A program made the translations under genes and the position numbers. Below are positions 17,410-42,360 of a stretch of DNA of 64,000 bases, piece by piece. The DNA comes from Candidatus Krumholzibacteriia bacterium (GTDB taxonomy: Bacteria > Krumholzibacteriota > Krumholzibacteriia > Krumholzibacteriales > Krumholzibacteriaceae): assembly GCA_023131975.1 (NCBI GenBank), contig JAGLYV010000078.1, positions 3,712 to 67,711 on the forward strand, written 5' to 3'. The notes below the pieces were generated by a model. It saw only the letters and a program-made list of their open reading frames with translations, was not told where the DNA came from and did no database searches. The number at the start of each line of letters is the position of its first letter. The first letter of the stretch is position 1.

Positions 17410-18711
17410 TCAATTCCGGCGGGAAATATTTATCCATGTCCGGCGCAACCATCTGAAAATCGGACCAAGCGCTCCTATCGGAAGGATCGAGAATATCTTT
17501 CGTCCGACTTTTGAAGAACAAAACATGAATTGCATTGAGAACAATATTTCAGCTACTTTTCTGCCTGTTTTGATATCTGGACGTGCCTGATTGAACGACG
17601 GGACCTTATATCCCAGATGCCTCCAGGCGCCGATCCTCAGCCAGGATCCATATTTCTTCAGATCAAAAGCATGTGCATGCATGGACAAAACCTCTTTGTG
17701 GCTGATATCTTCAGCTACGATGATCCCGGCTTCGATCGCTCTCCTTACAAGCTTTTCGCCCTCCCCCGTTCTTGCCAGGACTATCGACCATCCACCCTCT
17801 TCCAACCCCTCCTTCGACCAGGCATCACCGACACTTATATCACTCAACTCATTTGTGAGATCCGTGCAGAACAGGCATCTATGATTTATGTAAAAGGGAA
17901 TAGCCTGATTGAAATCCAGCTTGGAGACCTTCAGAGATTCTTCATCCTTATTGACCACTGAAAAATATCCGGGCCAGTCTCCTTCTCGATACGAAAGCTT
18001 TTTCACATCTTCCAGAGACTTGATCCCCATCTTTTTCAGCATCATCCTGGTCGCTTCATAATACAGGTTGTTTCCGCAATATATACCCACACATGGGCCG
18101 ATAGATGAAGCCTTGTCCCACCCCGAATCCTGCAATTTCCTGATTCCATGAATCTGGCACGGAAGACCGCTTACTGCTATCCTCTCACCGTCTCTGAGAT
18201 CCCCCAGTGCCTCGTTCATGGGACTGAGATGATATTTACTCTGAGATGCTTCTGCCACCTCTGTCTTCGACCGGGCGATCACACCTTTCCCAACGAAGGG
18301 CTTTTCTCTATCCATGGTATAAACAAGCGCCCCATCCGATTTATCTATATCGATAAGAAAGTTCAACAACGCAGTAACGATTCCACCACTGGCTCCAGAG
18401 TCCCTGACCTTTTCGTCGACAGCTCGAGCGACCCACGCGCTTTTTACAATACCGGCAAATGGATCTGTCTCCGAATCGCATATAAATCTTTTTTCGAGTC
18501 TTGAAAAATCAACTTCCGCTCCGGGACAGGAAGCGAGACACAGCCCACATGAATCACACCTCTTTCCCACACTGGGAAGACAGTCACCAAGTCGATCGGG
18601 TATGGATATATTTTCGAGATGACAGACTCCGACACAGGTCCCACACCTTGTACACAATCCGGTATCGACGATTTTACTGATCAACGTTTCACACGGCAGC
18701 TGTGCAGACAT
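17410..18711 (-). CDS. Coenzyme F420 hydrogenase/dehydrogenase beta-subunit-like (FrhB/FdhB family) flavo/Fe-S protein
   Basis: N-terminal 2x[4Fe-4S] ferredoxin motifs (CTRCGTCVGVC ... CDSCGLCLASCP) followed by an FrhB N/C-domain-like body. A second copy lies at 58032..59213. Confidence 0.65.
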   Translation of the reverse strand: MSAQLPCETLISKIVDTGLCTRCGTCVGVCHLENISIPDRLGDCLPSVGKRCDSCGLCLASCPGAEVDFSRLEKRFICDSETDPFAGIVKSAWVARAVDEKVRDSGASGGIVTALLNFLIDIDKSDGALVYTMDREKPFVGKGVIARSKTEVAEASQSKYHLSPMNEALGDLRDGERIAVSGLPCQIHGIRKLQDSGWDKASSIGPCVGIYCGNNLYYEATRMMLKKMGIKSLEDVKKLSYREGDWPGYFSVVNKDEESLKVSKLDFNQAIPFYINHRCLFCTDLTNELSDISVGDAWSKEGLEEGGWSIVLARTGEGEKLVRRAIEAGIIVAEDISHKEVLSMHAHAFDLKKYGSWLRIGAWRHLGYKVPSFNQARPDIKTGRKVAEILFSMQFMFCSSKVGRKIFSILPIGALGPIFRWLRRTWINISRRN

Positions 18712-19426
18712 AAAAGCTCCTCATACCGAGCTGACCCAGAAAAGACTTCCCGACCAGATCGGCGATCACACAATCAAATCGTTCTATCCCGGCTCCCCCG
18801 ATCGGGAGAAAGAGAGTTCCTCTGTAATCATCCAGTCGAAATCCGGAATCTCGAAGCATATCGCGGACTTCACGAGGAGCTAGAAACCTGTGTGGCCCCT
18901 CACCATGATGGAATTTCAATATCCCGTTAAGAACGCTTGTCCATTCGGCAAAAGAAGGAGGCAAGCTCATCACGAGTCGTCCTCCATCGACTACCACCCT
19001 CCGCAGCTCTTTCAGGAACAGTAGTGGATCAGGAACATGCTCCAGCGTCTCCAGCGACATTATTCTGTCAAACGAATCATCGAGGAATGGGAGTTCGTGA
19101 AGTGACGTCTGAACATGAGCCTCTTCCGGATTCAGCCTCCTGCTGCCCCTTAACATCTCCAAAGAGAGTTCCGCGTTTACAAGCTTGATTTCCGGACAAT
19201 CCTTTCTCAGCCAGGGGGTACCGTCTCCGATCCTCGACCAGATATTCAGCAGTCTTGTTCCCGGGGCAAGATCGAGTCTCTTCACAGCCTCCCGGAACCT
19301 TTGTGTATGCACGCGATCAAGTTGTTCGTTCGCGTGTTCATATTCATGCTCGGCTATTCCATCCCAGAATACCCGTACTTCATCCATTGTAAAATCGTTG
19401 GCGTATCTACTACTCATCGTTGACAT
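18689..19426 (-). CDS. Class I SAM-dependent methyltransferase
   Basis: 245 aa with a Rossmann methyltransferase core (LNIWSRIGDG..., DDSFDRIMSLETLEHVPDPLLFL..VVDGGRLVMS). Its 3' end overlaps the FrhB-like gene by 23 nt. Confidence 0.7.
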   Translation of the reverse strand: MSTMSSRYANDFTMDEVRVFWDGIAEHEYEHANEQLDRVHTQRFREAVKRLDLAPGTRLLNIWSRIGDGTPWLRKDCPEIKLVNAELSLEMLRGSRRLNPEEAHVQTSLHELPFLDDSFDRIMSLETLEHVPDPLLFLKELRRVVVDGGRLVMSLPPSFAEWTSVLNGILKFHHGEGPHRFLAPREVRDMLRDSGFRLDDYRGTLFLPIGGAGIERFDCVIADLVGKSFLGQLGMRSFYVCTAAV

Positions 19427-20402
19427 CCTCCGTCTTCTTTTCCAGAGGTGCCACCAGCCAGCATACCAGCCCGGTCACTCCCTGTATCAGATAGACAAGA
19501 ATAAAGGAGAGGGAAAAAGTCACTGCCGCTTCCCTCGAAAGCCCCACCCTGCTGAAGACCATTATAAGAACAAGTTCTCTCGTGCCGAGTCCTGACAGGG
19601 AAACTGGTATAAGTGCGGTAAAAATGGCCGCAGAAACACTTACTATCAAAATATGAAATGACGCGCCCGTTCCGACCCCATCGGCCAGAAGGATAAACAC
19701 TCCGAAATGAAGCACCCATGCTATAGCTGATAACAAGATCACCAGAGCCAGGCCGGAATGCCTGAGAGTGGAAAATTCACCTACAGCCTCCCCTATCCCC
19801 TTGTCTATGTTTCCTCTGAGAGACCCTTCCGAAGCGCCGGAGAGAAATTTCCCGGCAATCCGGCTCAAAAGGTCCCTGCGCCAGAAAAGAACCAGGAAGA
19901 CAACCGCGACGGATACCAGCAGGATACCACTTAAAAGAATCTGGTTATTAAAGATACCGGGGAATGAGACAAGACTGGCGAACCCTATCAGGACAAGAAA
20001 CCCCAGATCAAACAATCTGTCAGCCACTGAGCTGTATACAGCTTTGCCGGCCGACATCCCGCCCCGCATCAGATAGATGCTCTTGATAAAATCACCCAGG
20101 CGACCGGGGGTAAGAAATCCCAGATATAGAGCAGATGAATATATCGCGAACGCGCGCACAAGAGATATTTCTCCGCCCTGCATTTTTACAATGGTTCTCC
20201 ATCTCATGGCTTTGACCAGCGTAAAGGACAGGAGGATCAGAACGGTACCGGACATGTGCAGAAAACTTAAACCGGAAAACGAATCTCTCACAGACCGAAG
20301 GTCCACTCTTGACAGGATCACAACGAACAGGGCTATCCCCGCGATCTGAAATGCCGTTCTCAGGATTTTCTTTTGTGAAAATTCCATCTCAGTAACCCGC
20401 AT
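19410..20402 (-). CDS. Polytopic membrane protein, flippase-like / LPG-synthase-TM-like (UPF0104) family
   Basis: 330 aa with about 8 TM segments and no soluble domain. It has the characteristic pairing with an adjacent GT2 polyprenyl-phosphate glycosyltransferase. Confidence 0.55.
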   Translation of the reverse strand: MRVTEMEFSQKKILRTAFQIAGIALFVVILSRVDLRSVRDSFSGLSFLHMSGTVLILLSFTLVKAMRWRTIVKMQGGEISLVRAFAIYSSALYLGFLTPGRLGDFIKSIYLMRGGMSAGKAVYSSVADRLFDLGFLVLIGFASLVSFPGIFNNQILLSGILLVSVAVVFLVLFWRRDLLSRIAGKFLSGASEGSLRGNIDKGIGEAVGEFSTLRHSGLALVILLSAIAWVLHFGVFILLADGVGTGASFHILIVSVSAAIFTALIPVSLSGLGTRELVLIMVFSRVGLSREAAVTFSLSFILVYLIQGVTGLVCWLVAPLEKKTEDVNDE

Positions 20403-20404
20403 GG

Positions 20405-21265
20405 TCAGTCAAGCTTTCTCTCTCTTCTCAATGCGGAGATCTGGTCTGCCATTATGCCCATGAAAAACAGAAGTACACTGGTCAGGATGGTCAGAACTCC
20501 GATATTCGGCGCTCGTCCGAACCGCAGAATACCGTAAATCGTAAACAGGATACCGACCCCCATCATCACTATGGATACTGGCACAAAGACCTTAAGCGGA
20601 TTAAAAAGGACGATGACCCTTATGATGAGAAGAAATGTCTTGTAACCATCTTTGAAGAAACTCACATTGCTCGCTCGTCCGACTCTTGCTTCGGCGGGTA
20701 TCGGCAGATACTTCACGCTGTACGCCGATCTCAGATAGGCAAGCGTGATCGTAGTAGTGAAAGAAAAGCCATTCGGGCAAATATGAAGGAACTGGAATAT
20801 CGTCTCTTTCCTGAAAGCCCGGAATCCCGAGTTCAAATCAGGAATATTCATACCACTAAGGTAATTCGCGACCAGCGACAGAACTTTTTTGCCTGGGGCC
20901 CGCATACCTTTCGACTGGCCTCTGGCACCCACGACCATGTCGTACTCGCCGATCTGGCCTATGAGCTTTTCTATATCAGCAGGATCATGCTGTCCGTCAC
21001 TGTCCATCATGACCACGGTATCTCCATTAGCATTCCTGATACCTGTCTTAAGGGATGCCCCATACCCCTTGTTATAAGGATGTCTGCACACTCGCGCTCC
21101 CGATTCGGCTGCTATTTCGGCGGTCCTGTCAGAGGACCCATCGTCTATGACGATCACTTCCCAGTTCTTTTCACCGGCAAGCCTCATCAGGTCATTGAGG
21201 AATTTCGCGAGCCCCGTCTCCTCATTGTATGCGGGAATGATAATTGTCACATCATATCCGTTCAT
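20405..21265 (-). CDS. GT2 polyprenyl-phosphate sugar synthase (DPM1/GtrB/ArnC-like) with two C-terminal TM helices
   Basis: Motifs IIIPAYNEE, VIVIDDGSSDRT, MDSDGQHDP, and C-terminal helices (VLFNPLKVFVPVSIVMMGVGILF, VLTILTSVLLFFMGIMADQI) as in ArnC/GtrB. Confidence 0.8.
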   Translation of the reverse strand: MNGYDVTIIIPAYNEETGLAKFLNDLMRLAGEKNWEVIVIDDGSSDRTAEIAAESGARVCRHPYNKGYGASLKTGIRNANGDTVVMMDSDGQHDPADIEKLIGQIGEYDMVVGARGQSKGMRAPGKKVLSLVANYLSGMNIPDLNSGFRAFRKETIFQFLHICPNGFSFTTTITLAYLRSAYSVKYLPIPAEARVGRASNVSFFKDGYKTFLLIIRVIVLFNPLKVFVPVSIVMMGVGILFTIYGILRFGRAPNIGVLTILTSVLLFFMGIMADQISALRRERKLD

Positions 21266-21358: not shown

Positions 21359-21446
21359 TGGTGCCGAGGGAGGGACTTGAACCCTCACAGTGCTAAGCAC
21401 CAGCGGATTTTAAGTCCGCTGCGTCTACCAGTTCCGCCACCCCGGC
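21359..21446 (-). tRNA. tRNA-Leu (anticodon UAA), type II with long variable arm
   Basis: GCCGGGGUGGCGGAACUGGUAGACGCAGCGGACUUAAAAUCCGCUGGUGCUUAGCACUGUGAGGGUUCAAGUCCCUCCCUCGGCACCA, hand-folded, with anticodon loop cuUAAaa. Confidence 0.85.
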
Positions 21447-21526
21447 ACTTGACAATTAATAGCCTAATACCCCTGTAACATCAAGTGAAAAGCCGCAATC
21501 TGCAGATGATTAGCATTGGATCAGAA

Positions 21527-21553
21527 AAGAAAACCGGATCCAGGCCGGTTTGG
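21527..21553 (-). terminator. Putative intrinsic terminator downstream of tRNA-Cys
   Basis: On the minus strand, AAACCGGCC-UGGAU-CCGGUUU forms a hairpin followed by UCUUUUCUG. Confidence 0.4.
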
Positions 21554-21558
21554 TTACC

Positions 21559-21633
21559 TGGAGGCGGCGACCGGATTCGAACCGGTGATAACGATTTTGC
21601 AGACCGTCGCCTTAGCCACTTGGCTACGCCGCC
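21559..21633 (-). tRNA. tRNA-Cys (anticodon GCA)
   Basis: GGCGGCGUAGCCAAGUGGCUAAGGCGACGGUCUGCAAAAUCGUUAUCACCGGUUCGAAUCCGGUCGCCGCCUCCA, with a 7-bp acceptor stem and anticodon loop cuGCAaa. Confidence 0.8.
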
Positions 21634-21644
21634 TCATAAAAAAC

Positions 21645-21720
21645 TGGAGCGGGAAACGGGGTTCGAACCCGCGACCTCAACCTTGGCAAGGTTGCGCTCT
21701 ACCAGCTGAGCTATTCCCGC
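21645..21720 (-). tRNA. tRNA-Gly (anticodon GCC)
   Basis: GCGGGAAUAGCUCAGCUGGUAGAGCGCAACCUUGCCAAGGUUGAGGUCGCGGGUUCGAACCCCGUUUCCCGCUCCA, with anticodon loop uuGCCaa. Confidence 0.85.
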
Positions 21721-24345: not shown

Positions 24346-24906
24346 CTATTTTCTGATTGTCGTTTTGACTATCCAGCAGTCAGGATACTCTTCTGCCAGT
24401 CTTACTCTCGCGTCAGATGCACCTTCTCGTCCGGAAAAATCGCCTGCCCGGACCTTATAAAGACCACCTTCGTAGTCTATATACACAGCAAGTCCTGTTC
24501 CCGCCATTAATTTTTTCTTAAACTCTTTTGCCTTCTCCAGGTCTGAAGAAGCGAATACCTGCACCCTGTAACCTTTCGCGAATTTTTCCACCGAAGGCGG
24601 CTCTTCGTTGATATCCTTTACCGAAAATGTGTCCGGAGCTGTTTTCTCAAGTTTATCAAGCAATTCCGTCTCTTCTCCGATATCTTCATCCTCAAGGACC
24701 TCTTCATCAATGTCGTATACCTCTTCCAGTTTCTCGTCCAATGGCACGACTTTGTCTTCCGTTCGCGTGGATTCCAGATCAACCGGTTCCGGGACAGATG
24801 ACACCCTGTTTCCCGTTTCGGTCCTCGTACACCCGGTCTGAACAAAAAGAATCACTAAAATTGCGAATGACAATAAATACAAACGGTTTTCTGCAATTTT
24901 CATCAT
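24346..24906 (-). CDS. SPOR-domain lipoprotein
   Basis: Lipoprotein signal MMKIAENRLYLLSFAILVILFVQTGC, an acidic linker, and a C-terminal SPOR-like repeat (GYRVQVFASSDLEKAKEFKKKL...LYKVRAGDFSGREGA). Confidence 0.55.
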   Translation of the reverse strand: MMKIAENRLYLLSFAILVILFVQTGCTRTETGNRVSSVPEPVDLESTRTEDKVVPLDEKLEEVYDIDEEVLEDEDIGEETELLDKLEKTAPDTFSVKDINEEPPSVEKFAKGYRVQVFASSDLEKAKEFKKKLMAGTGLAVYIDYEGGLYKVRAGDFSGREGASDARVRLAEEYPDCWIVKTTIRK

Positions 24907-25036
24907 GGCCTTCGACCTCCAGATATGGAACTTGTCAGCCCTCTCCGCACCTTGATTATCAGAAAAAGTACTACCTGTCAATTAAATTGGAAAGTCATAT
25001 ATTCGGGCGCCCTGCTATTACCCCCTCAGATCCTCA

Positions 25037-26197
25037 TCACATCCTGTCATCTTCGAGCTGTTTTCCTGCTCCATGGATCAAGTCAAGATAGAATCTTTCC
25101 GTGCGTTCCGCGACTGAGTCCCAATTGTACTCTTCCTCGATCTTCTTTCTTCCGTGACTGCCCATCCACGAGGCCCGGCTGTCATCCAAAACGATCATCT
25201 CCCTCAATCCCCTGCCCAGATCACTTTTGTCCCCTCTTTTGAAAATCGCTCCGACCTTTCCCGCGACTTCAAGGTTTTCCGGAATATCGCTGATCAGCAC
25301 CGGTCTTGAAAAACTCATCGCCTCCATAAGTGAGATCGGAAGACCCTCTACCAGCGAAGGCAAAACGTAGAAGGCACAGTGAGCGTACAATTCATCCAGG
25401 TTTTCCCCGGCGACATATCCCGGGAATATCACCCTGTTGTCAGCGATTCCATGCAGTTTTCGCGCATATTCGACTTCAAACCTCTCGTCACCTACAATGA
25501 CGAGCTTCATGTCCGTATCGATTTCGGACCATGCTTCCAGCAGAGTATCGAATCCTCTTTCGACTATGAACCGGCCTACGGTGAGGATAAATTTCCCACT
25601 TTCGATTCCCAACCCGAGGAGGTCCCTTAGGGGTGGGCTTTCTCTGAGCGTAGCACCATTTGGAATGTAAACGACTTTCGAAGAATATCTCGATGACAGA
25701 TCCTCCGCCATCAGTTTCGATACAGCTATCGTCGCACTGGCAGACCTGACTGCTCGCGCCTCACCCTTGCGTAAAAGGTATTTTACCACCCTTCCCCACT
25801 TGCTCTGCCTGTAATCGAGAGCATGAACGGTTGAGACAGTCAGTTTATTCGCCATCACGGGTATCCCCGCGAACAGCGAAGGGCCTATCCCATGATAGTG
25901 GATGATATCAAAAGGTCCTGACAGAGCTTTCATTGTTGCTATGAAAGAGTGTGTACCCGCATCCAGATTCTTTGTGGGGATAGACGGCAGCAGTCTCACA
26001 TTCATTCCGAGATGCTCTCCGTCAATACTGAAAGGTTTACGGCCGAAAACGGTTATCTCATGCCCCCTGCCCGCAAGGCGTCTCCCTATTTCCTCGACAT
26101 GCCTTTCTATACCTCCGAATAACGCGGGAAGACCTTTCGACCCGATCATCGCTATCTTCAGATTTGAATTGCCATCTTTATTCATGATCAGACTCAT
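25037..26197 (-). CDS. GT4 family glycosyltransferase
   Basis: 386 aa with N- and C-terminal GT-B Rossmann halves (..LMEAMSFSRPVLISD.. in the C-domain). Confidence 0.8.
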   Translation of the reverse strand: MSLIMNKDGNSNLKIAMIGSKGLPALFGGIERHVEEIGRRLAGRGHEITVFGRKPFSIDGEHLGMNVRLLPSIPTKNLDAGTHSFIATMKALSGPFDIIHYHGIGPSLFAGIPVMANKLTVSTVHALDYRQSKWGRVVKYLLRKGEARAVRSASATIAVSKLMAEDLSSRYSSKVVYIPNGATLRESPPLRDLLGLGIESGKFILTVGRFIVERGFDTLLEAWSEIDTDMKLVIVGDERFEVEYARKLHGIADNRVIFPGYVAGENLDELYAHCAFYVLPSLVEGLPISLMEAMSFSRPVLISDIPENLEVAGKVGAIFKRGDKSDLGRGLREMIVLDDSRASWMGSHGRKKIEEEYNWDSVAERTERFYLDLIHGAGKQLEDDRM

Positions 26198-27192
26198 GTG
26201 ACAGAAATATCTCTTCTCAACAATAACAACAACCAGTTTTTAAGTATCCATAAAACAGGCTTTACAGGATTTCTTTTCATAGAGGCTCTGGCAGTGCAGA
26301 TCATCCAGCACGAAAGCGTACATTTATCGACTACTTTGCGGACCTTTTCCGCTTGTTCGCTCTTCCATATCTCTTCAATGGTATTTTTCGTGACATCACC
26401 CATCTCCTGTTCCAGGGTAAGACAGGGGAACACTTTGCCATTCGGATCGATGAACACGGAATCCCGCCCGGCTCTGCATCCAAGCGCCCTCCGCCCCACG
26501 CTGTTGTAATAAAGGACTCCCGAATAAAAATATGCTCTCAGCCATCGCTTCGGGCTGAAGCTCCCGAGCTCTTTCTTCATGACATACTTCAACTCATTCT
26601 CGAGTTCTCCTGGTTCGACCTGCTGATTGTCCTTTGTCGAGAAGTAAAAATCGGAGTTCTGAGCAACTGACGTAGTAAACTGGAACCCAAACTGCCTGGA
26701 CAGGTCATATACGGCTCCCAGATGCCTGACATTCTCCTTCTGCGCGGTAAAAGCAACCCTGACATTTCTGTATCCGAGTTTTTTCAGTTGCGTCAGAGTC
26801 TCGACGATCTTTTTGAATCCATCCTCGACACCTCTGATCTGGTCATGCATTTCTCCGATTCCGTCCAGTGATACTGCTATTCCGATCTTCCTGCTTATCT
26901 TCTTGAGAGAAGGCGCGGCATGGGCGATCCTTCTATTCTGAAAACCATTTGTCGATATCACGATCCGTGGATGCCCACAATGATCATATATACTACGGAC
27001 CATATCCACGATATCGTCTCGCAGGAAAGGCTCGCCCCCGGTTACATTCAGGTCATTCACGGTCGATGGAAGCTTCTTCACATCTTCGATATCGAACTCC
27101 ATTCCCGCCGGCAGCTTCCAGATATTGCACATATTGCACCTGGAATCACATCTGTATGTCACGGCCAGCACCGCGTCGAACGGCAACGCCAT
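26194..27192 (-). CDS. Radical SAM enzyme with C-terminal Cys-rich (SPASM-like) extension
   Basis: CxxxCxxC cluster motif near the N-terminus (YRCDSRCNMCN). A C-terminal Cys cluster (...CLTLEQE...CTLSCWMICTARAS) is also present. Start and stop overlap the flanking GT4 genes. Confidence 0.7.
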   Translation of the reverse strand: MALPFDAVLAVTYRCDSRCNMCNIWKLPAGMEFDIEDVKKLPSTVNDLNVTGGEPFLRDDIVDMVRSIYDHCGHPRIVISTNGFQNRRIAHAAPSLKKISRKIGIAVSLDGIGEMHDQIRGVEDGFKKIVETLTQLKKLGYRNVRVAFTAQKENVRHLGAVYDLSRQFGFQFTTSVAQNSDFYFSTKDNQQVEPGELENELKYVMKKELGSFSPKRWLRAYFYSGVLYYNSVGRRALGCRAGRDSVFIDPNGKVFPCLTLEQEMGDVTKNTIEEIWKSEQAEKVRKVVDKCTLSCWMICTARASMKRNPVKPVLWILKNWLLLLLRRDISVT

Positions 27193-27207: not shown

Positions 27208-28350
27208 CTATCGACCAAGACCTTCCACAAGTTCGGAATAACCCCTGATCATATTCTCCTCCGAATAATCTCTCAACACTCTTTTTCTGGCCATTTTCCC
27301 GATACCTGCCAGGAGAGCCGGATCGGACTTCAACCTGAGCAGCGTATCGGCCATGAGGATCGAATCCCCACTCGGCACCAGCATCCCTTCCTCTCCGTCC
27401 AGGAACATCTCCGCTATCGACCCGACATCAGTCGATACGACCGCAAGCCCCGAAGACATAGCCTCAAGGACAGTGAGAGGAAAGGTCTCGACGACCGGAT
27501 ATGAACAGAGTGTGGCGGCATCGGAAAGAGCGAATATCCTGTCAATATCGTCCCGCACTCCCATAAACCTGATCCTGTCCGGTTTCGCCGTTTTCTTGAC
27601 GATTTCATGCAATTTCCCTGCCTCTACACCATCCCCGGCTATTAAAAATGTGAAGTCATCGTGTGATCTGAGAAGTTTATCAGCGACATCGATAAACATA
27701 TCGTGGTTTTTTTCAGGTCTGAGAGCCGCCACGATCGTCACGACGAAATCATTTTCAGGTATCGAATACTGCCTTCTAAGTTCTTTTTTATGATCAATGG
27801 AAACCGGAGGACTGAATCTGTCCGTATCAATACCATTGGGAACCAGGATTATCTTTTCTGGAGGGATCCTCCCATCCTTTTCCAGAAATCTGGCGTGAGG
27901 AGGAGCCAGCGCGACAAATCGGTCGAACATGCGAAGAACCAGCCTGTCCGTAAAGCTGAAAGTGCCTTTCTTCCCCCATAGTCCGGTCGAATGTACACTG
28001 AGGATCCTGCTTCTTATACCTGCCATCTGTGACGCTGTCGCACCCAGCAATATCGCGTCATGATGATCCAGTACGATAAGGACGGGGTCATCGCCGACAG
28101 AAAATATCCTCTTTAACTTTGCGAAAGAGGATAGATCGAATCTTCCGCGGGCAACGCCTGACCGGAGTGTGACTCCCGCATCGATGAGCTGCTGCCCGAC
28201 ATGCCCCGGCAACCTCAGGCAGATCACTTCAACATCATGTCCATAGCGGGACATGCCTGTCGCCAGGGCCTTTATCACCATCTCGGCCCCACCCGTCACA
28301 AGGGTGGAACAGAGGATAAAGATTTTCCTCCTGCTTCGGCGAGAACCCAT
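27208..28350 (-). CDS. GT4 family glycosyltransferase
   Basis: 380 aa GT-B (ILCSTLVTGGAEMV... N-domain, EGMLVPSGD... C-domain). Confidence 0.8.
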   Translation of the reverse strand: MGSRRSRRKIFILCSTLVTGGAEMVIKALATGMSRYGHDVEVICLRLPGHVGQQLIDAGVTLRSGVARGRFDLSSFAKLKRIFSVGDDPVLIVLDHHDAILLGATASQMAGIRSRILSVHSTGLWGKKGTFSFTDRLVLRMFDRFVALAPPHARFLEKDGRIPPEKIILVPNGIDTDRFSPPVSIDHKKELRRQYSIPENDFVVTIVAALRPEKNHDMFIDVADKLLRSHDDFTFLIAGDGVEAGKLHEIVKKTAKPDRIRFMGVRDDIDRIFALSDAATLCSYPVVETFPLTVLEAMSSGLAVVSTDVGSIAEMFLDGEEGMLVPSGDSILMADTLLRLKSDPALLAGIGKMARKRVLRDYSEENMIRGYSELVEGLGR

Positions 28351-28361: not shown

Positions 28362-29000
28362 TTATATGTAAGGGGCTTCCCTGCGTCCCTGTTTGCAGCG
28401 CAGATCCTTCAGGTCTTCGTGGACCCTGGCAGGATTGCCATAGGCGAGGACTCCCGGGGGAAGGTCCTTCGTCACAACGGACCCGCTGCCGACAAGCGTA
28501 CCCTCACCGATAGTGACATATGGTACGACCGTAACATTGACACCGATCCTGCATCCCTTTTTAAAGACGGGCCCCCTCATGCAGTCACCAGAGTCGGGAC
28601 ATCCGGGATGAATGTCGTTCGCCACGGTGACTCCAGGCGCCATAAAGACTTCATCCTCGATCACGGTAAACTGGGCTATGTATATATTGCAGTGGATCTT
28701 GACGTTGTGGCCGATAGTACATCCGTAATCGATCACCGAATTATTCCATATATTAAAATGGTCGCCGATAGTGTTTTCTTCCCTGATAATGACATTGTGG
28801 CCCGTCTCGAGCCCCTTGCCTATCTTCGACCCGGCATAGATGACGCTTCCGCTTCGTATCCTCGCGCCCTCGCCGATTTCAAGGAGTTCACTGACATTTC
28901 GCCTTGGTGACAGGTAGCCCACTATGGCTTCCGGGTCGATATCAGCCCCGGCTCCAAGACGCAGTTCACCGAGTTTCCTCGGATTGATTAAAGGATCCAT
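28362..29000 (-). CDS. Left-handed beta-helix (hexapeptide) sugar N/O-acetyltransferase (WbpD/PglD-like)
   Basis: 212 aa with repeated [LIV]-G-x-x-x-x hexapeptide units (IGHNVKIHCNIYIAQFTVIEDEVFMAPGVTV...). Confidence 0.75.
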   Translation of the reverse strand: MDPLINPRKLGELRLGAGADIDPEAIVGYLSPRRNVSELLEIGEGARIRSGSVIYAGSKIGKGLETGHNVIIREENTIGDHFNIWNNSVIDYGCTIGHNVKIHCNIYIAQFTVIEDEVFMAPGVTVANDIHPGCPDSGDCMRGPVFKKGCRIGVNVTVVPYVTIGEGTLVGSGSVVTKDLPPGVLAYGNPARVHEDLKDLRCKQGRREAPYI

Positions 29001-29016: not shown

Positions 29017-30042
29017 TTACTTTAAGGCTTTCGGGTATTCTATTTTGATCTCCGTACCGGCAGCAGCCATCGATCTGTCCGCTGCATCAAGCACCAGCAG
29101 TACTTCCAGCCCGTGTTTTCCACTGCTTCGTGACGCTGTTCCGTTTATGCAGTCGATGAAATGCTGGCACTCTATCTTCAGTGGTTCCGCATCCTCGAGC
29201 TTCGGAATCGAGATATCGCCATACCTGTACGCAAGCTGGAACTCTCCGAAGGTGTCATAATGTGGTATGACGTCTACACCCTTGTCATAGATACGGATCT
29301 TTTCGAGACTTGCGATGTCATCATAAACAAGCATCTTCTTACTGCCGACCACGGTTGTCGCGCGGATCTTGTTCGGATTCAGCCAGGATACCTGAAGATT
29401 CGCGAGAATAGAGCCGGGGTACCGGAGCGTCAAAAAGGCTACATCCTGAATGTCGGGTTGTATGTAGGAATGTCCTACGGCAGATACGGCCACAGGCCTG
29501 GATTCGAGGATGTAATTCATGATGGAGACATCATGAGGGGCAAGATCCCAGACCACATTGATGTCCTCCTGGAACAGGCCCAGGTTGACGCGGGATGTGG
29601 ACATATAGTAAATGTCACCAAGGTCGCCTGCCTTGATAAGATCCCTGATCTTGTTTACAGCAGCGGTATATACGAATGTGTGACCTACCATCAGGGTACG
29701 GTCTGCCTTCTCCGCCAGCTCGACCAGCTTGACTCCTTCTTCAACTGTGCGTGTAAGAGGTTTTTCACAGAATACGTGCTTTCCGGCTTCGAGAGCTTCC
29801 GAAGCTATGCCGGCATGAGTAGATACAGGCGTTGCAATGACAACGGCCTCTATCTCGGGGTCGGCAATGATAGTCTTGTAGTCTGTGGTGGTCTCAAGGG
29901 ACGGGTACAACATTTTCATGTGGTTCAGGCGATCTTCAGAAAGATCGCTTGCCGTCTTGACTCTGGCGTCCTTCAGGTTGATGAAGTTCCTGATGAGGTT
30001 TGGACCCCAGTATCCGCATCCGATCACTCCTACAGTCAGCAA
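29017..30042 (-). CDS. Gfo/Idh/MocA-family NAD-dependent sugar oxidoreductase (WbpB-like)
   Basis: N-terminal Rossmann motif VGVIGCGYWGPNLIRNF and EKP motif (CEKPL). Confidence 0.75.
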   Translation of the reverse strand: MLTVGVIGCGYWGPNLIRNFINLKDARVKTASDLSEDRLNHMKMLYPSLETTTDYKTIIADPEIEAVVIATPVSTHAGIASEALEAGKHVFCEKPLTRTVEEGVKLVELAEKADRTLMVGHTFVYTAAVNKIRDLIKAGDLGDIYYMSTSRVNLGLFQEDINVVWDLAPHDVSIMNYILESRPVAVSAVGHSYIQPDIQDVAFLTLRYPGSILANLQVSWLNPNKIRATTVVGSKKMLVYDDIASLEKIRIYDKGVDVIPHYDTFGEFQLAYRYGDISIPKLEDAEPLKIECQHFIDCINGTASRSSGKHGLEVLLVLDAADRSMAAAGTEIKIEYPKALK

Positions 30043-30057: not shown

Positions 30058-30795
30058 TTAAAGTCCCCCTGTGCCGGCGAGCATCACAGGTATCGTCCTG
30101 AATATTATCTTCAAGTCCATGGCGAGAGACCAGTTCTCTATGTAATAGAGATCCAGCTTGACCATCTCGTGGAACGGGACGGTACTCCTTCCACTGACCT
30201 GCCAGAGGCCTGTCAATCCAGGCTTTACTTTCAGCCTCAACTTGTGCCATTCATCATACTGCTCATACTCATACCCAAGTGGCGGCCGCGGGCCGACGAT
30301 AGTCATCTCACCCTTGAGTATGTTGATGAACTGCGGCAGTTCATCAAGACTGGTCCGCCTCAAAAACCCGCCAAGGCCGGTTATCCGCGGATCATGGGAT
30401 ATTTTATATAGATTACTTTCCTGGCCGTCAAGTGATGATTGCGACATCTGGCCCTTGATGAAATTCTGGGCAAACTCCCTGTGGATCGAATCGTCATTGT
30501 CGGGACGCATGGTCCGGAACTTGAAAAAGGCAAAAGAACGCCCATTTTCCCCGATTCTCTGTTGCTTAAAGAAGACGGAGCCTCTGGACGTTATCTTGAT
30601 AAGCACAGCAAGGGCGAGAAAAAATGGGAACCCTATCATTAGAACACCCAGTGATACGCCCACATCTATGAAACGTTTGACAAATCTCTGCGCAACGCCC
30701 CGCTCCCGTATGGCGAACGAGACACCACCGTCAAGTCGTTCCTCATGCTGCTCAATCTTGATGTCACTGTCCAGGGCCAGTGATAACTTTCTCAT
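30058..30795 (-). CDS. Small initiating phosphoglycosyl transferase (PglC/WbaP C-domain-like bacterial sugar transferase)
   Basis: A single N-terminal re-entrant helix, then ...KFRTMR...DPRIT..G.FLRRTSLDELPQFINILKGEMTIVGPRP. Confidence 0.8.
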   Translation of the reverse strand: MRKLSLALDSDIKIEQHEERLDGGVSFAIRERGVAQRFVKRFIDVGVSLGVLMIGFPFFLALAVLIKITSRGSVFFKQQRIGENGRSFAFFKFRTMRPDNDDSIHREFAQNFIKGQMSQSSLDGQESNLYKISHDPRITGLGGFLRRTSLDELPQFINILKGEMTIVGPRPPLGYEYEQYDEWHKLRLKVKPGLTGLWQVSGRSTVPFHEMVKLDLYYIENWSLAMDLKIIFRTIPVMLAGTGGL

Positions 30796-30880: not shown

Positions 30881-31987
30881 TTATGTCTGATCGATAGTTC
30901 TTAACACCTCACAGACACGATCGACTTTATCCAATGCGAGTTCCGGAAACATCGGAAGAGTGATGCTGGTAGTCATCAATTTTTCTGATACCGGAAAATC
31001 TCCACTTGAATAACCCAGGTGCAAAAATGCTGGTTGCAGGTGGATGGGGACCGGATAATGCCGACCCCACCCTATATCTGCGTCAGCAAGTGCCTTACCG
31101 ACAACCTGCTGGTCTTTACACCCCAGCGCGAAAAGATGATAGACTGGCTCGCAATCCTTGCTTTCTGCGGCCATCCAATACCCTGTATCCTTCAGACCCT
31201 CGTGATATCTCTCGGCGAGTGCCCTTCTTTTTTCATTCCATCCGTCCAGGTATGCCAGTTTCACTCCCAGAACTGCCGCCTGGATTGCCTGAAGCCTGTA
31301 ATTATAACCTAGCTCTGTGTGCTCGTTTTTAACGATCTGACCGTGATGCCTGAGCCCCTTCATGCGTCTTACCAGTTCCTTGTCATCGGTAGTGACAGCA
31401 CCACCCTCCCCGAAAGACCCCAGGTTCTTGCTGGGATAAAAGGAGAATGCAGCCGCATGGCCGAGTGATCCGGCTCTTCTTCCTTTATATCTGGCACCAT
31501 GGGCCTGACAGGAATCCTCGATCACCTTGAGCCCATGTTTCTCCGCGATCTCCATAATCGAGTCCATATCGCATGGCTGACCGAAGAGATGCACGGGGAT
31601 TATAGCCTTTGTCTTGTCTGTAATAGCAGCTTCGAGTTTCGATGGGTCCATAAGCGCGGTGTCTTCAAGGACATCGATCAGGACAGGCTTTACGCCGATC
31701 ATTCCGATCGCCTCGACGGTAGCGATAAAAGTGTTCGCAACCGTGATCACCTCATCGCCCGGTCCAATCTTGAATCCAAGAAGAGCAAGTACAAGAGCTG
31801 ATGTACCACTGCTCGTCCCGGCACAGTATTTCGTGCCGCAATAATCCGCAAAATTCGCTTCGAACTCTTCGAGCCCCGGACCAAGCACAAACGCCGTTTT
31901 ATCGATCACTTTCTCGATAGCAGCATCGACTTCGGCCCTTATCGTCTGTGTTTGCTCACTAAGGTTGAAAAACGGTATCTTACCCAT
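30881..31987 (-). CDS. DegT/DnrJ/EryC1/StrS-family PLP-dependent sugar aminotransferase (WbpE-like)
   Basis: 368 aa with DegT-family N-terminus (IPFFNL...) and motifs (..FYPSKNLGSFGEGGAVTT..). Confidence 0.8.
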   Translation of the reverse strand: MGKIPFFNLSEQTQTIRAEVDAAIEKVIDKTAFVLGPGLEEFEANFADYCGTKYCAGTSSGTSALVLALLGFKIGPGDEVITVANTFIATVEAIGMIGVKPVLIDVLEDTALMDPSKLEAAITDKTKAIIPVHLFGQPCDMDSIMEIAEKHGLKVIEDSCQAHGARYKGRRAGSLGHAAAFSFYPSKNLGSFGEGGAVTTDDKELVRRMKGLRHHGQIVKNEHTELGYNYRLQAIQAAVLGVKLAYLDGWNEKRRALAERYHEGLKDTGYWMAAESKDCEPVYHLFALGCKDQQVVGKALADADIGWGRHYPVPIHLQPAFLHLGYSSGDFPVSEKLMTTSITLPMFPELALDKVDRVCEVLRTIDQT

Positions 31988-32443
31988 AGATCACGCCTCT
32001 TCCATCTCAGTTTTAAATACCCCTTACCCAAGTCCCCTGATTATAACATCATTGACAAATTAATACTAGCCCCTAAATTCCGACCTGGATTCAGGGAAAC
32101 AATCCTCCGCATGATAGCAAATAGCACTACGATAGGGAATTTTCCCTCAAAAGCGCCAGCCTTGACTTTGGGCCGGACTTTTGCTTTAATCCCTTTATGA
32201 GAATTCTGCTTGTATCAGAAGAAATCACCGCAAGCCCTTCGGAAGGGCTTCTCGTCTTTATTATGCATATCTGCAGATATCTATCTGCCAGACATCAGCT
32301 TAAGGTGATATACAGAGATGGAAATCCTGAAGCTCACCTGGATGCTCTCCCGCTTCTTTCAGGCCGACTGCATTCGGGGAGAAATCTTCGTAACTATTTT
32401 AAAACAACCAATTTGATCTGATTATCTACATCCCATCTTCTCT

Positions 32444-32473
32444 TGACAGGGGCCGCCAGGAAGGGGTACAGTC
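32444..32473 (+). promoter_or_regulatory. Sigma70-like promoter for the rmlC-rmlD operon
   Basis: TTGACA - 18 nt - TACAGT lies about 45 nt upstream of the SD-containing start of rmlC. Confidence 0.35.
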
Positions 32474-32517
32474 TCTGATACCTGTCACCCATGATTACGC
32501 TCACAAAGGAGCCTGAA

Positions 32518-32973
32518 ATGATAGATGGTGTAAAGATAAAGAAACTGAAGGTGATTTCTGATGAACGAGGCAGGCTCATGGAGATGGTCCGTGCCGATGA
32601 TGAGGATTTCGTCAAGTTCGGCCAAGTCTACATGACTACCTGTTACGAGGGCGTCGTCAAGGGCTGGCATTACCACCATAAACAGTTCGACTACATGACT
32701 GTCATCAGGGGCATGATGAAGATCGTACTTTATGACAACCGTGAAGAGTCATCTACGCATGGAGAGGTCAACGAGTTCTTTGCCGGGGAAAATAATCCGA
32801 TCAGAGTCCAGATCCCTCCTGGTGTGTGTCATGGATTCAAATGTATAAGTCCCGGAGAGGCGATCGTGGTTAACACGGTATCGGAACCGTACGCATACGA
32901 TGACCCCGACGAACACCGTATGGACCCTCATAATAACGATATCCCATACGACTGGAACAGAAAAGACGGATAG
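32518..32973 (+). CDS. rmlC: dTDP-4-dehydrorhamnose 3,5-epimerase-like cupin (RmlC/WxcM family)
   Basis: Cupin fold. Start moved to the second ATG because AAGGAG lies inside the first nine codons of the listed ORF. Confidence 0.6.
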   Translation: MIDGVKIKKLKVISDERGRLMEMVRADDEDFVKFGQVYMTTCYEGVVKGWHYHHKQFDYMTVIRGMMKIVLYDNREESSTHGEVNEFFAGENNPIRVQIPPGVCHGFKCISPGEAIVVNTVSEPYAYDDPDEHRMDPHNNDIPYDWNRKDG

Positions 32974-32989
32974 CAACGGTGGTTCACCG

Positions 32990-33853
32990 ATGAAAAAAGT
33001 ATATGTCACAGGTTCCCGCGGAATGCTCGGCAGGGCACTTGTTCCCATCTTCTCGGAACATTACGAAGTAAGAGGCACAGATCTGCCCGACGCCGATGTC
33101 CGTGTGGCAACCGATATCCACGAGGATATCCTGAGATTCGCTCCCGATATCGTCATCCATCTCGCATCGATGACCGACGTTGACGGATGCGAACTCGATC
33201 CGGAACAGGCTGATATCTCGAACCGGGCCGGTACTGAAAACGTGGCGAAAGCCTGCCTGGAATGCGACGCAGTCATGGGTTATGTCAGCACGGGAATGAT
33301 CTATAACGGTTTAAAACCTTACCCCTATATCGAATATGACAAGCCCGACCCTATTTCGGTCTATGGGAGGACCAAATTCGAAGGTGAACTCGCTATGCGT
33401 TCCATCCTTAAACGATATTACATCTTCAATACGTGCTGGATCTTCGGCGGAGGCGCCGTAGACAAGAAATTCGTTGCCCGAATCATCGACATGGCTCGTA
33501 ACAACCCTTCGATCAGGATTGTAGACGATAAACTTGGATCACCGACCTACACGGTCGACCTTGCTTCCCGTATATTGAGACTCATCGGTGACGGGGTACC
33601 TTTTGGGCGCTATCACTGTGTCAATTCTGGCTGCGTGAGCAGGTATGAAGTCGCTGGTGAGATAATAAAGGCCGCAGGTATCGAAGGCTGTGAAGTACTT
33701 CCCGTCCCTTCGACCGAATTTCCTCTTCCGGCACCGAGACCAGCGATGGAAGGTATGTCAAACTACGCGATGAGTCTACTCGGAATGGAAAGGATGCGTG
33801 ACTGGCGTACGGCCCTGCATGAATACGTCACGTCCGAACTGTCCTCAGACTGA
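32990..33853 (+). CDS. rmlD: dTDP-4-dehydrorhamnose reductase
   Basis: Starts MKKVYVTGSRGMLGRAL. Has an RmlD-like SDR Rossmann fold and the YGRTK motif (VYGRTKFEGE). Confidence 0.75.
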   Translation: MKKVYVTGSRGMLGRALVPIFSEHYEVRGTDLPDADVRVATDIHEDILRFAPDIVIHLASMTDVDGCELDPEQADISNRAGTENVAKACLECDAVMGYVSTGMIYNGLKPYPYIEYDKPDPISVYGRTKFEGELAMRSILKRYYIFNTCWIFGGGAVDKKFVARIIDMARNNPSIRIVDDKLGSPTYTVDLASRILRLIGDGVPFGRYHCVNSGCVSRYEVAGEIIKAAGIEGCEVLPVPSTEFPLPAPRPAMEGMSNYAMSLLGMERMRDWRTALHEYVTSELSSD

Positions 33854-33898
33854 AAAGAGATTTCCCGTTTTTCCGAGCACCCGCCATCCCCGGGATGC

Positions 33899-34627
33899 TC
33901 AGGTGTTGTTGGCTCCGGTCTTCGCAACCAGATTGCCCGCTTTTAAAAGAGATTCGAATGTTCCCGCGTCCGTCCACCAACCGTCGAGGATGTCCCAGGC
34001 AAGCTCTCCCCTGTCGATGTAGGCGTTGTTGACATCGGTGATCTCGAGCTCACCGCGGCCCGAAGGCTTAAGAGTCTTGATAATATCGAAGACCGTGTTG
34101 TCGTACATGTAGATCCCTGTCACGGCGTAACTGGATCCGGGTTTGGCGGGTTTCTCCTCTATCTTGACGACTCTTTCACCTTCAAGCACAGGCACGCCGA
34201 ACCGCTCCGGGTCCGGGACTTCCTTTAGGAGTATTCTGGCTCCAGAATCCTGCTTCCTGAATGCATCGACTGCTGCAGCAATATTCTTCTCTATGATATT
34301 GTCTCCCAGTACTACACAGATGCTTTCGTCACCGGCGAAGTACTCAGCCAGCTTCAATGCCTCGGCGATTCCCCCCTCACCCTCCTGATACGTATAATTG
34401 ATATGCTCCAGCCCGAATTTGCTCCCGTTTCCCAGCAGCCTGAGAAAATCACCAGCGTTATTCCCTCCGGTGACGACGAGGATATCACGTATATCAGCAT
34501 CGATAAGTGTCTGTATAGGATAGTAGATCATCGGTTTGTCGTGTACGGGAAGCAGATGCTTGTTGGTTATTTTTGTCAGGGGCAGAAGCCGGCTGCCGAG
34601 CCCCCCGGCCAATATAATTCCCTTCAT
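33899..34627 (-). CDS. Sugar-phosphate nucleotidyltransferase, short RmlA-like form (glucose-1-phosphate thymidylyltransferase family)
   Basis: MKGIILAGGLGSRLLPLTKITNKHLLPV. The SD AAGGAG lies upstream. Confidence 0.7.
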   Translation of the reverse strand: MKGIILAGGLGSRLLPLTKITNKHLLPVHDKPMIYYPIQTLIDADIRDILVVTGGNNAGDFLRLLGNGSKFGLEHINYTYQEGEGGIAEALKLAEYFAGDESICVVLGDNIIEKNIAAAVDAFRKQDSGARILLKEVPDPERFGVPVLEGERVVKIEEKPAKPGSSYAVTGIYMYDNTVFDIIKTLKPSGRGELEITDVNNAYIDRGELAWDILDGWWTDAGTFESLLKAGNLVAKTGANNT

Positions 34628-34884
34628 CGATCGATTCTCCTTTTTTCATGTTCAAGACCGGGGCAGTATAGCAATACTCCCGGCCAAACTCAAGCTTATA
34701 CCCGCTGATCAGCATATTTATCATTGTACGAAGAATCGATTAACGCTACTATGACTGTTCGTGGAGTGTAATTACCAAGTCCTTATCGCACTGGTCCCCG
34801 ACCGCTGATTCAACCAGGATCTTTGAGGACCAGCGACGATCGATCAGAGAATCAGATTTTCTCGCTCTCAGCAGGAGACAGGTG

Positions 34885-42351: not shown

Positions 42352-42360
42352 CTCCAGTAC

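Follow-up and report, generated by a model that had tools for sequence, protein, structure and literature searches.

To our knowledge, radical SAM sugar chemistry has so far been known mainly from antibiotic pathways and from a few membrane-lipid head groups. The antibiotic enzymes include BlsE (PDB 7vob), the cytosylglucuronate decarboxylase of the blasticidin S pathway, which acts on a free nucleoside. BtrN, NeoN, and HygY are small; their cluster motif lies near the N terminus, and, as judged from the BtrN alignment, a CX17C hairpin followed by a CX2-3C pair lies in the C-terminal part. The full SPASM domain reportedly contains a seven-cysteine motif, CX9-15GX4C - gap - CX2CX5CX3C - gap - C, and the canonical SPASM maturases anSME, PqqE, CteB, SuiB, and SkfB have seven or eight C-terminal cysteines. 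The twitch domain is a truncated SPASM domain in which a β-hairpin cysteine pair and a second cysteine pair are enough for one cluster (PMC11002830). According to PMC10991966, the hydrogen donor for sugar epimerization by NeoN and HygY is a nonligand cysteine, Cys249 donating the hydrogen atom in NeoN, and the twitch epimerase HygY turns into a dehydrogenase on mutation of one cysteine. The radical SAM enzymes Cds, HpnJ, and PtmC take as substrate a sugar that is already attached to a carrier.

The 64,000-nucleotide stretch of DNA that was analyzed (the window) carries a radical SAM gene at positions 26194 to 27192 which, like all features given below, lies on the minus strand. From its sequence and genomic surroundings, the product is probably a cytoplasmic tailoring enzyme of the SPASM/twitch subgroup that serves in the assembly line of a polyprenyl-diphosphate-linked glycan. 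The gene has an ATG start and encodes 332 aa with no predicted transmembrane segment. The CxxxCxxC motif noted in the sequence-only reading was read directly as C15-x3-C19-x-M21-C22 (CDSRCNMC, C15-x3-C19-x2-C22; 27127 to 27150) and is predicted to bind the SAM-cleaving [4Fe-4S] cluster. Each of the three cysteines is conserved in 92 to 97% of 119 family representatives, M21 was found in 75 of 77 loci, and G52, G53, and E54 of the GGE SAM-binding motif (GGEP, residues 52 to 55) are invariant. The assignment to the radical SAM enzymes was borne out by Pfam, with scores of 49.6 bits for Radical_SAM (PF04055; cutoff, 29.5) and 46.9 bits for SPASM (PF13186; cutoff, 21.5; residues 239 to 295 covered), both far in excess of chance expectation. 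The protein was modeled by AF2 with a pLDDT of 96. A membrane anchor was considered and rejected, as no hydrophobic segment was found and the C-terminal helix was modeled with high confidence; in this model, the helix is read as packing on the protein.

The second, C-terminal cysteine cluster that had been proposed earlier is present, but in a form other than that of a full SPASM domain. Five cysteines (C239, C257, C291, C295, and C299) are each conserved in 87 to 91% of the 119 family representatives and lie in a domain at 26296 to 26478, comprising the C239-x17-C257 hairpin, C291-x3-C295, and C299 within W-M-[IV]-C-T. The segment C239-x12-G252-x4-C257 agrees with the SPASM motif over its first half, while the second half, C291-x3-C295-x3-C299, is followed by no more cysteines, and the full seven-cysteine motif is thus not present. 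The spacing characteristic of an auxiliary cluster was nevertheless found, since CX17C equals that of the BtrN hairpin (C169/C187), with which it aligns. The domain is therefore better described as twitch-like, with one predicted auxiliary cluster, than as a full two-cluster SPASM domain. C239, C257, C291, and C295 behave as a unit, all four being absent from 33 of the 77 loci, and their assignment as auxiliary-cluster ligands is deduced from this co-loss and not from coordinates. C299 and W296 are retained in all 77 loci, including those where the four-cysteine set is gone. One HMM alignment places C299 opposite C232 of BtrN, which we take to be a cluster ligand. Glycine occupies position 299 in the Segatella copri and P. 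xylanivorans homologues, and the clade with S. copri keeps the four auxiliary cysteines; no full-length family representative was found to lack both the four-cysteine set and C299. The S. copri homologue has the protein accession WP_050758626.1, and the homologous genes are LK433_RS14900 in S. copri DSM 18205 and FXF36_RS15425 in Pseudobutyrivibrio xylanivorans MA3014. Since C299 is not universal, the chemistry may differ among clades.

These data bear on a reading in which the enzyme is a dehydrogenase of the BtrN/anSME type, oxidizing a sugar hydroxyl to a ketone with the auxiliary cluster as electron acceptor, so that the keto-sugar would be available for tailoring or for an unusual linkage. 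The alignment of CX17C...CX3C with the BtrN hairpin agrees with such a reading, as do the structure and profile searches, whose matches include BtrN, anSME, and SpeY, a twitch dehydrogenase; the Gly-299 clade that keeps its auxiliary cysteines would suit the cysteine-to-dehydrogenase precedent given for HygY in PMC10991966. Against this, the 33 loci without the four auxiliary cysteines still lie in glycan cassettes, and the enzyme itself retains C299, a candidate hydrogen donor that would favor hydrogen return over oxidation. A dehydrogenase is accordingly regarded as quite unlikely.

BlsE shares the unusual CxxxCxMC form of the cluster motif. A further possibility is a BlsE-like decarboxylase or dehydratase that would take a hydrogen from a uronic acid or other sugar residue and remove CO2 or water, to yield a pentose or deoxy-keto sugar in the glycan. 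The two proteins are only 17% identical, however, and differ in that the present enzyme has the four auxiliary-cluster cysteines and C299 and is encoded in a polyprenyl-linked glycan operon rather than in an antibiotic pathway. The BlsE score is also nearly equaled by that of SkfB. Furthermore, no UDP-sugar 6-dehydrogenase or uronic-acid gene was prominent in the named conserved-neighbor clusters, many small clusters and singletons being unannotated. A BlsE-like reaction is considered unlikely.

The identity of the family was further assessed with the NCBIfam models, none of which reached its cutoff on the protein. The scores were 55.4 bits for MoaA (TIGR02666; cutoff, 284), 67.6 bits for AhbD (cutoff, 500), 68.9 bits for NirJ2 (cutoff, 500), 60.3 bits for NirJ1 (cutoff, 650), and 90.2 bits for the PTO1314 family (TIGR03961; cutoff, 306), the last giving a best E value of 9e-29 among 59 representatives. 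MoaA, AhbD/NirJ, and PTO1314 were excluded because no cutoff was reached, and 59 distant family members were likewise far under the cutoffs of the heme-pathway, MoaA, and PTO1314 models. A housekeeping cofactor enzyme (MoaA, AhbD/NirJ, QueE, or PflA-like) that stands in a glycan operon by chance could account for the weak matches to NirJ2, AhbD, and MoaA, and also for the automatic names on the homologues P0046, P0052, and P0121, which are those of cofactor enzymes (for example, "Fe-coproporphyrin III synthase" at JGI). Scores of 55 to 90 bits against cutoffs of 284 to 650, the lack of heme or molybdenum-cofactor genes nearby, and the conserved glycosyltransferase synteny and fusions described below make this extremely improbable. 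The best homologues are thus not housekeeping enzymes, in agreement with what had been anticipated, and some homologues are currently mislabeled as heme or molybdenum-cofactor enzymes. The family is large and falls outside every curated model. Homology to calditol synthase by way of PTO1314 was also rejected, as many other families scored at least as well as PTO1314 on the 59 representatives; the analogy was kept.

The operon extends from 31987 to 24346, and its genes, in order of transcription, suggest the synthesis and assembly of an amino sugar-containing glycan. The first gene (30881 to 31987) encodes a DegT-family sugar C3-aminotransferase (Pfam, 389 bits), with PDB matches to QdtB (E = 4e-98), DesV (E = 4.5e-99), and WbpE (E = 2e-77). 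It is followed by a small Bac_transf phosphoglycosyl transferase (PGT) with one transmembrane or hydrophobic segment (30058 to 30795; Pfam, 219 bits; TIGR03025, 285 bits), the predicted initiator of a polyprenyl-diphosphate-linked glycan. The next product (29017 to 30042) is a GFO/IDH/MocA oxidoreductase by Pfam and a candidate sugar 3-dehydrogenase; its PDB matches are generic, and its score for the NCBIfam UDP-GlcNAc 3-dehydrogenase, 182 bits, is under the cutoff of 450. A hexapeptide N-acetyltransferase resembling QdtC and WlbB (28362 to 29000; Pfam Hexapep) matched QdtC (3fs8) at E = 3.8e-30 and WlbB (3mqg) at E = 5e-15. Two GT4 glycosyltransferases, at 27208 to 28350 and 25037 to 26197, both identified by the Pfam domains Glycos_transf_1 and Glyco_transf_4, flank the radical SAM gene, as had been claimed. 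The upstream GT4, whose top NCBIfam match is TIGR03088 at a subcutoff 158 bits, holds the same position in Krumholzibacteriota relatives, while the downstream GT4 gives a weak DUF1972-type signal. The last gene encodes a SPOR-domain protein with one transmembrane segment (24346 to 24981; Pfam SPOR), a conserved downstream neighbor in Krumholzibacteriota that occupies the same position in loci L001, L003, L005, L006, and L007. The order aminotransferase, PGT, oxidoreductase, acetyltransferase, GT4, radical SAM, GT4, SPOR is retained in relatives down to 50% identity. The operon is a phylum-conserved core locus, and its product, called an EPS in the sequence-only reading, may be any polyprenyl-linked surface glycan.

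Both ends of the radical SAM gene had been described as overlapping the GT4 genes. This held for the stop codon, whose TGA overlaps the start of the downstream GT4 in the ATGA at 26194 to 26197, but not for the start codon, which is separated from the end of the upstream GT4 (27208) by a 15-nt spacer containing the ribosome-binding-like GAGGGTGG. Intergenic gaps throughout the operon are just −4 to 85 nt, which leaves no space for a precursor-peptide ORF within it. The earlier view that a RiPP role is unlikely was thereby strengthened, as it was by the absence of an RRE and by neighbors that are glycosyltransferases and Wzy-type proteins. In more general terms, the enzyme might mature a peptide or protein, acting in RiPP biosynthesis or, like anSME, activating an adjoining enzyme. 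Most SPASM/twitch enzymes modify peptides, strong structural matches were obtained to SkfB, SuiB, CteB, and PqqE, and the GT4s weakly match TIGR04157, a glycosyltransferase family that its NCBIfam short name, glyco_rSAM_CFB, connects with radical SAM systems. However, Pfam detected no RRE, PqqD, or N-terminal extension in the protein, and the CxxxCxxC motif already begins at residue 15, hence there is no leader-binding domain. The enzyme differs from the canonical SPASM maturases also in its smaller number of C-terminal cysteines (five against seven or eight), in having no peptide or protein substrate nearby, and in its conserved partners. No conserved small ORF, protease, exporter, or transporter was observed among the neighbors over 77 loci. 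With regard to anSME-like activity, which would call for a target protein with a conserved (C/S)x(P/A)xR motif encoded close by, no sulfatase gene was found in the operon, and maturation of the partner GT4 was rejected, as the SxPxR matches are not conserved in GT4 orthologues. A maturase is therefore highly improbable.

The association with glycan assembly was supported by the wider family, which comprises 309 clusters at 50% identity and is present in at least 574 species genomes from many bacterial and archaeal lineages, mostly uncultured, as well as in the gut bacterium S. copri. Loci were scanned with a 17-sequence family alignment, and neighbors were counted over 77 loci from many phyla with a crude ORF caller. 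A GT4 was located within one gene of the radical SAM gene in 40 of these loci, a number that rises to 61 for distances of up to three genes and to 63 for up to five; in all, 126 of the 601 neighboring ORFs encode GT4s. A Wzy_C protein adjoins the radical SAM gene in 27 of the 77. The downstream GT4 is the conserved partner of the radical SAM enzyme: matches with 33 to 44% identity and at least 85% coverage occur in 23 loci that lack the Krumholzibacteriota-type synteny. In S. copri, the order is glycosyltransferase, radical SAM, GT4, where the orthologue of the downstream GT4 directly follows the radical SAM gene (34% identity, 99% coverage). In P0228, this orthologue (33% identity, 96% coverage) is the GT4 half of a single protein, fused at the C terminus of the radical SAM enzyme. 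Other fusions involve an N-terminal GT4 (P0150 and P0151), GT2 (P0141 and P0169, with partial GT2 in P0145 and P0149), GT28-C (P0201, on 6 contigs), and LPG_synthase_TM (P0221 and P0257), and in locus L089 the order is PGT, WecG, and a TM-radical SAM fusion. The family is thus tied genomically to GT4s and to Wzy_C-type membrane proteins and is repeatedly fused to glycosyltransferase domains. Because the enzyme adjoins or is fused to sugar-adding enzymes across lineages, it probably edits a sugar during cell-surface glycan building. Owing to the synteny across phyla and the independent GT2, GT4, GT28-C, and LPG_synthase_TM fusions, the predicted role in glycan assembly has more support than was available to the sequence-only reading. 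The step had been called unusual, which stands relative to characterized systems, while in metagenomes it is common.

In the pathways of Cds, HpnJ, and PtmC, a glycosyltransferase attaches a sugar to a lipid or carrier, and the attached sugar is then remodeled by the radical SAM enzyme. The present locus resembles them in this logic; the substrates in those systems are membrane lipids or ACP-bound intermediates rather than polyprenyl-diphosphate glycans. For these enzymes, contraction of the ring of a carrier-bound hexose to give a cyclitol has been proposed, and here such a reaction would anchor the glycan through an ether-type linkage that resists hydrolysis. In hopanoid loci, the radical SAM enzyme HpnJ is encoded together with a GT2 (HpnI) and a protein of the LPG_synthase_TM type (HpnL), and the family members fused to LPG_synthase_TM are in keeping with this arrangement. 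HpnJ, however, carries a B12-binding domain, whereas the Pfam scan detected no such domain (PF02310) in the present protein, and PTO1314, the best curated archaeal family, scores no better than heme and peptide families. Ring contraction is for these reasons very unlikely. The cobalamin-dependent sugar C-methyltransferases differ from the enzyme in the same respect, their B12-binding domain being N-terminal. Separate B12-radical SAM genes are present in some related loci.

The most likely role suggested by these comparisons is that of a radical editor, perhaps an epimerase, whose substrate is a sugar either linked to a polyprenyl carrier or activated by a nucleotide. The oxidoreductase, aminotransferase, and acetyltransferase would together make a 3-acetamido sugar, which the initiating PGT would place on polyprenyl phosphate and the upstream GT4 would extend. 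The radical SAM enzyme would then cleave SAM to give the 5'-deoxyadenosyl radical and abstract a hydrogen from a sugar carbon, either of the lipid-linked intermediate or of the nucleotide sugar that serves the partner GT4 as a donor. After resolution of the substrate radical, the downstream GT4 would use the edited sugar, or may have just made it. The favored chemistry, which is speculative, is a redox-neutral abstraction and return of hydrogen, resulting in epimerization; by analogy with the twitch epimerases NeoN and HygY, C299 might act as the hydrogen-atom donor and the four-cysteine auxiliary cluster as an accessory redox center. No sugar-nucleotide pathway was common to all the loci examined, and the target sugar therefore cannot be named.

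It is conceivable, although rather doubtful, that the family represents a previously unrecognized class of radical glycan-editing enzymes. These would act on polyprenyl-diphosphate-linked oligosaccharides in Wzy-dependent pathways, be physically coupled to GT4s, and occur in more than 10 phyla, including CPR, archaea, and S. copri. The three cysteine states (cluster and cysteine, cysteine only, and cluster only) would set the radical outcome, epimerization or oxidation, giving surface sugars that no NAD-dependent pathway makes. No biochemical or genetic account of any family member was found in the literature, nor was such a system described in reports on radical SAM enzymes in O-antigen, capsule, EPS, lipid-linked, or Patescibacteria contexts, and no report was found in which radical SAM sugar chemistry forms an integral part of the assembly of bacterial surface polysaccharides. 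If lipid-linked or activated sugars are indeed edited, many uncultured anaerobes, among them CPR bacteria and one abundant human gut species, would bear surface glycan residues that standard pathway annotation cannot predict, with consequences for the prediction of glycan structures, for recognition by phages and the immune system, and for the discovery of enzymes. The natural variants without the cluster cysteines or without C299 would be a ready-made experiment on the choice of twitch enzymes between epimerization and oxidation.

Within the operon, 17 internal promoter-like matches (shuffle expectation, 12.9 ± 3.5) and 16 terminator-like matches (9.5 ± 2.9) were counted, both near expectation, and were given no weight. 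In the 503-nt intergenic region upstream, the ORFs of at least 20 aa look random, with the exception of a decayed glycosyltransferase remnant.

The radical SAM gene (rSAM; 26194-27192, minus strand) codes for a 332-residue protein and has a GC content like that of its surroundings. The CxxxCxxC motif noticed in the sequence-only reading was located as CDSRCNMC (C15-x3-C19-x2-C22), with a GGEP motif at residues 52 to 55. The Pfam Radical_SAM (49.6 bits) and SPASM (46.9 bits) models both matched above cutoff, and the AlphaFold model was confident (pLDDT, 96.1; pTM, 0.93). On sequence evidence, the protein is best described as a widespread, uncharacterised twitch-type radical SAM sugar enzyme that appears to have been recruited into primary surface-glycan assembly lines. 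This supports the overall earlier reading, with corrections to the start overlap, the SPASM assignment, and the EPS. No paper was found in the literature on this family or on radical SAM chemistry as part of Wzy-type glycan assembly.

Assignment as a housekeeping cofactor enzyme was rejected because rSAM and 59 distant family members all fell below the NCBIfam cutoffs. For rSAM, the best model was PTO1314 (90 against a cutoff of 306), followed by NirJ2 (69 against 500), AhbD (68 against 500), and MoaA (55 against 284). Scores so far below cutoff argue against MoaA-like enzymes being the best homologues, an outcome for which the sequence-only reading had allowed. Labels such as "Fe-coproporphyrin III synthase" carried by some homologues at JGI look like over-annotation. 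The PDB matches of the family profile (SkfB, BlsE, CteB, BtrN, MoaA, anSME, GDGT-MAS, and PqqE) all belong to the SPASM/twitch subgroup. BlsE and rSAM have in common the unusual CxxxCxMC motif, and M21 is kept in 75 of 77 related loci; a BlsE-like decarboxylation or dehydration is considered improbable beside the epimerisation favoured below.

The enzyme had been called SPASM-like, with a second cysteine cluster at the C-terminus, and rSAM has five C-terminal cysteines (239, 257, 291, 295, and 299) besides the SPASM match. The opening half of the SPASM motif is matched by C239-x12-G252-x4-C257, and in an HMM alignment with BtrN this pair shows the CX17C spacing of hairpin C169/C187, so auxiliary-cluster spacing of the SPASM/twitch type is present. 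The second half reads C-x3-C-x3-C with no later cysteine and departs from the seven-Cys SPASM pattern; the domain is twitch-like but not a full SPASM. A BtrN-like oxidation by rSAM is rated slightly less probable still than the BlsE-like chemistry. Over 77 loci, two clean types and one mixed locus were observed: C239, C257, C291, and C295 were retained in 43 loci, including the window, and lost all together in 33. All 77 keep W296 and C299 (motif W-M-[IV]-C-T). Glycine replaces C299, with the four cysteines retained, in the proteins of S. copri and P. xylanivorans introduced below and in a few other family representatives; loss of the four together with C299 was seen in no full-length representative. 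The four cysteines are read as forming one putative, dispensable twitch-type auxiliary cluster and C299 as probably having a separate role, with the caveat that one HMM alignment sets C299 opposite BtrN C232.

All 33 auxiliary-less loci are from Patescibacteria/CPR, Gammaproteobacteria, or unclassified "bacterium" MAGs. A Wzy_C gene lies within three genes in 28 of them, and a Bac_transf initiating transferase within five genes in none. A recurrent CPR/Gammaproteobacteria cassette (loci L029, L030, L032, L042, L047, and similar) runs auxiliary-less rSAM, Wzy_C, GT4, GT4, GHL15/FG-GAP, DUF11-like.

In the window, rSAM belongs to a compact minus-strand operon (31987 to 24346; gaps of -4 to 85 nt) in the order DegT aminotransferase, small Bac_transf phosphoglycosyl transferase, GFO/IDH/MocA oxidoreductase, hexapeptide acetyltransferase, GT4, rSAM, GT4, and SPOR protein. 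The proposed placement between two GT4 genes was borne out by Pfam for both neighbours (27208-28350 upstream and 25037-26197 downstream). Overlap with both neighbours had also been claimed; the rSAM stop does share bases with the downstream GT4 start (ATGA), but 15 nt separate the upstream GT4 stop from the rSAM start. The closest relatives of the aminotransferase are the C3-aminotransferases QdtB, DesV, and WbpE, those of the acetyltransferase are QdtC and WlbB, and the oxidoreductase gave a sub-threshold NCBIfam match to UDP-GlcNAc 3-dehydrogenase. Together with the initiating transferase, these likenesses suggest that the operon builds a 3-acetamido sugar, which would go onto polyprenyl phosphate for the GT4s to extend; that the product is an EPS, as first named, is not established. 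A peptide maturase is unlikely, in line with the sequence-only reading: no precursor-like ORF fits within the operon, no RRE was found in rSAM, and no small ORF is conserved across the 77 loci.

Relatives in Krumholzibacteriota preserve the entire operon order at identities as low as 50%. When ORFs were called in 77 loci and the neighbouring ORFs clustered, GT4s made up 126 of 601, with one at most one gene away in 40 loci, three in 61, and five in 63. In 27/77 loci the family gene is directly next to one for a Wzy_C-family membrane protein, and GHL15/FG-GAP proteins are present in 17/77; further recurrent neighbours are Wzz-like proteins, phosphoglycosyl transferases, NAD-dependent epimerases, and B12-type radical SAM genes. 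Family representatives are fused to GT2 (P0141 and P0169; partial in P0145 and P0149), an N-terminal GT4 (P0150 and P0151), a C-terminal GT4 (P0228), a GT28 C-terminal domain (P0201, on six contigs), LPG_synthase_TM (P0221 and P0257), a methyltransferase (P0179), and GHL15 (P0143). Locus L089 has the order PGT - WecG - [LPG_synthase_TM-rSAM].

The downstream GT4 is the conserved partner of rSAM. It has matches (33-44% identity, ≥85% coverage) in 23 loci outside Krumholzibacteriota-type synteny, is equivalent to the GT4 part of P0228 (33% identity, 96% coverage), and in S. copri has an orthologue directly 3' of the rSAM gene there, in the order GT - rSAM - GT4 (34% identity, 99% coverage). An anSME-like maturation of this GT4 was rejected, its SxPxR motifs not being conserved, as was membrane anchoring of rSAM, which has no hydrophobic segment. 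Tandem radical SAM/SPASM paralogues occur in some loci (L088, 8238-12154; L060 and L083, gene +1); the FAD_binding_6 protein between the two in L088 may serve as a dedicated source of electrons. In L031, L036, L063, and L084, the glycan cluster that holds the family member also has one to three genes for B12-binding radical SAM proteins, which add another kind of radical enzyme to these loci.

Close homologues (50-95% identity) are labelled Krumholzibacteriota wherever a source gives a name, which makes this phylum the probable origin of the window. An exhaustive search of cluster representatives gave 309 clusters at E ≤ 1e-30, and screening a single genome for each species gave at least 574 confirmed loci, the best 80 of which span Krumholzibacteriota, many CPR/Patescibacteria groups, Actinomycetes, Thermoleophilia, Chloroflexota, Gammaproteobacteria, Planctomycetota, Verrucomicrobiota, Sumerlaeota, and archaea. 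Two cultured carriers were found, Segatella copri DSM 18205 (L091, NZ_CP085934.1, 7788-12613; GT - rSAM - GT4 - nucleotidyltransferase) and Pseudobutyrivibrio xylanivorans MA3014 (L090, pNP95, 8986-10158). Both genes are in polysaccharide loci on records filed as plasmids, and their proteins (39-40% identity) carry a C-terminal extension of 60-70 residues. A contig labelled "Patescibacteria group bacterium" (L011/P0020) is probably mis-binned, given its 67% rSAM identity and full Krumholzibacteriota operon order.

As to mechanism, rSAM would cleave SAM and abstract a hydrogen from a sugar, which would be either linked to polyprenyl-PP as an intermediate or used by the partner GT4 as its donor; the sugar radical would then be resolved. 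Cds, HpnJ, and PtmC are radical SAM enzymes that remodel a sugar already attached to its carrier. Cys249 of NeoN is a precedent for a non-ligand cysteine, and HygY is described as a twitch epimerase that became a dehydrogenase when one cysteine was mutated (PMC10991966). By analogy with this NeoN/HygY precedent, epimerisation is favoured for the window's type, and the HygY mutant suggests that the Gly-299 clade may carry out oxidation. Ring contraction is considered very improbable.

Other features surround the operon. A decayed glycosyltransferase remnant (32197-32601, plus strand), corresponding to approximately residues 1-127 of 352 at 39% identity, runs into the start of the cupin ORF at 32491-32973; relatives L001, L003, and L007 have the gene at full length, occupying the same divergent site ahead of the aminotransferase gene. 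A second membrane glycosylation module (17410-21265, minus strand) comprises a FrhB-like protein, a methyltransferase, an LPG_synthase_TM protein with the same domain as that fused in P0221 and P0257, and a GT2 whose C-terminal part has three hydrophobic segments. The tRNA genes Leu(taa), Cys(gca), and Gly(gcc) form a cluster of three at 21359-21720 (minus strand), between this GT2 module and glgA. A separate Wzx/Wza-type polysaccharide locus (39254-56200) holds several GT4s, a GT2, a Polysacc_synt flippase, a phosphodiesterase, P-loop ATPases, Poly_export, and a second Bac_transf. No Pfam model matches the 882-aa product of ORF 42361-45009, but approximately 14 hydrophobic segments within residues 1-514 make it a candidate polymerase. 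No dTDP-glucose 4,6-dehydratase was found among the ORFs scanned at 8.8-56 kb of the 64-kb window to go with the RmlC/FdtA-like cupin, RmlD-like reductase, and RmlA genes of the stretch 32491-39109. That stretch continues with DUF5752, a TreT-like GT, a trehalose-phosphate phosphatase, and a GT20 trehalose-phosphate synthase.
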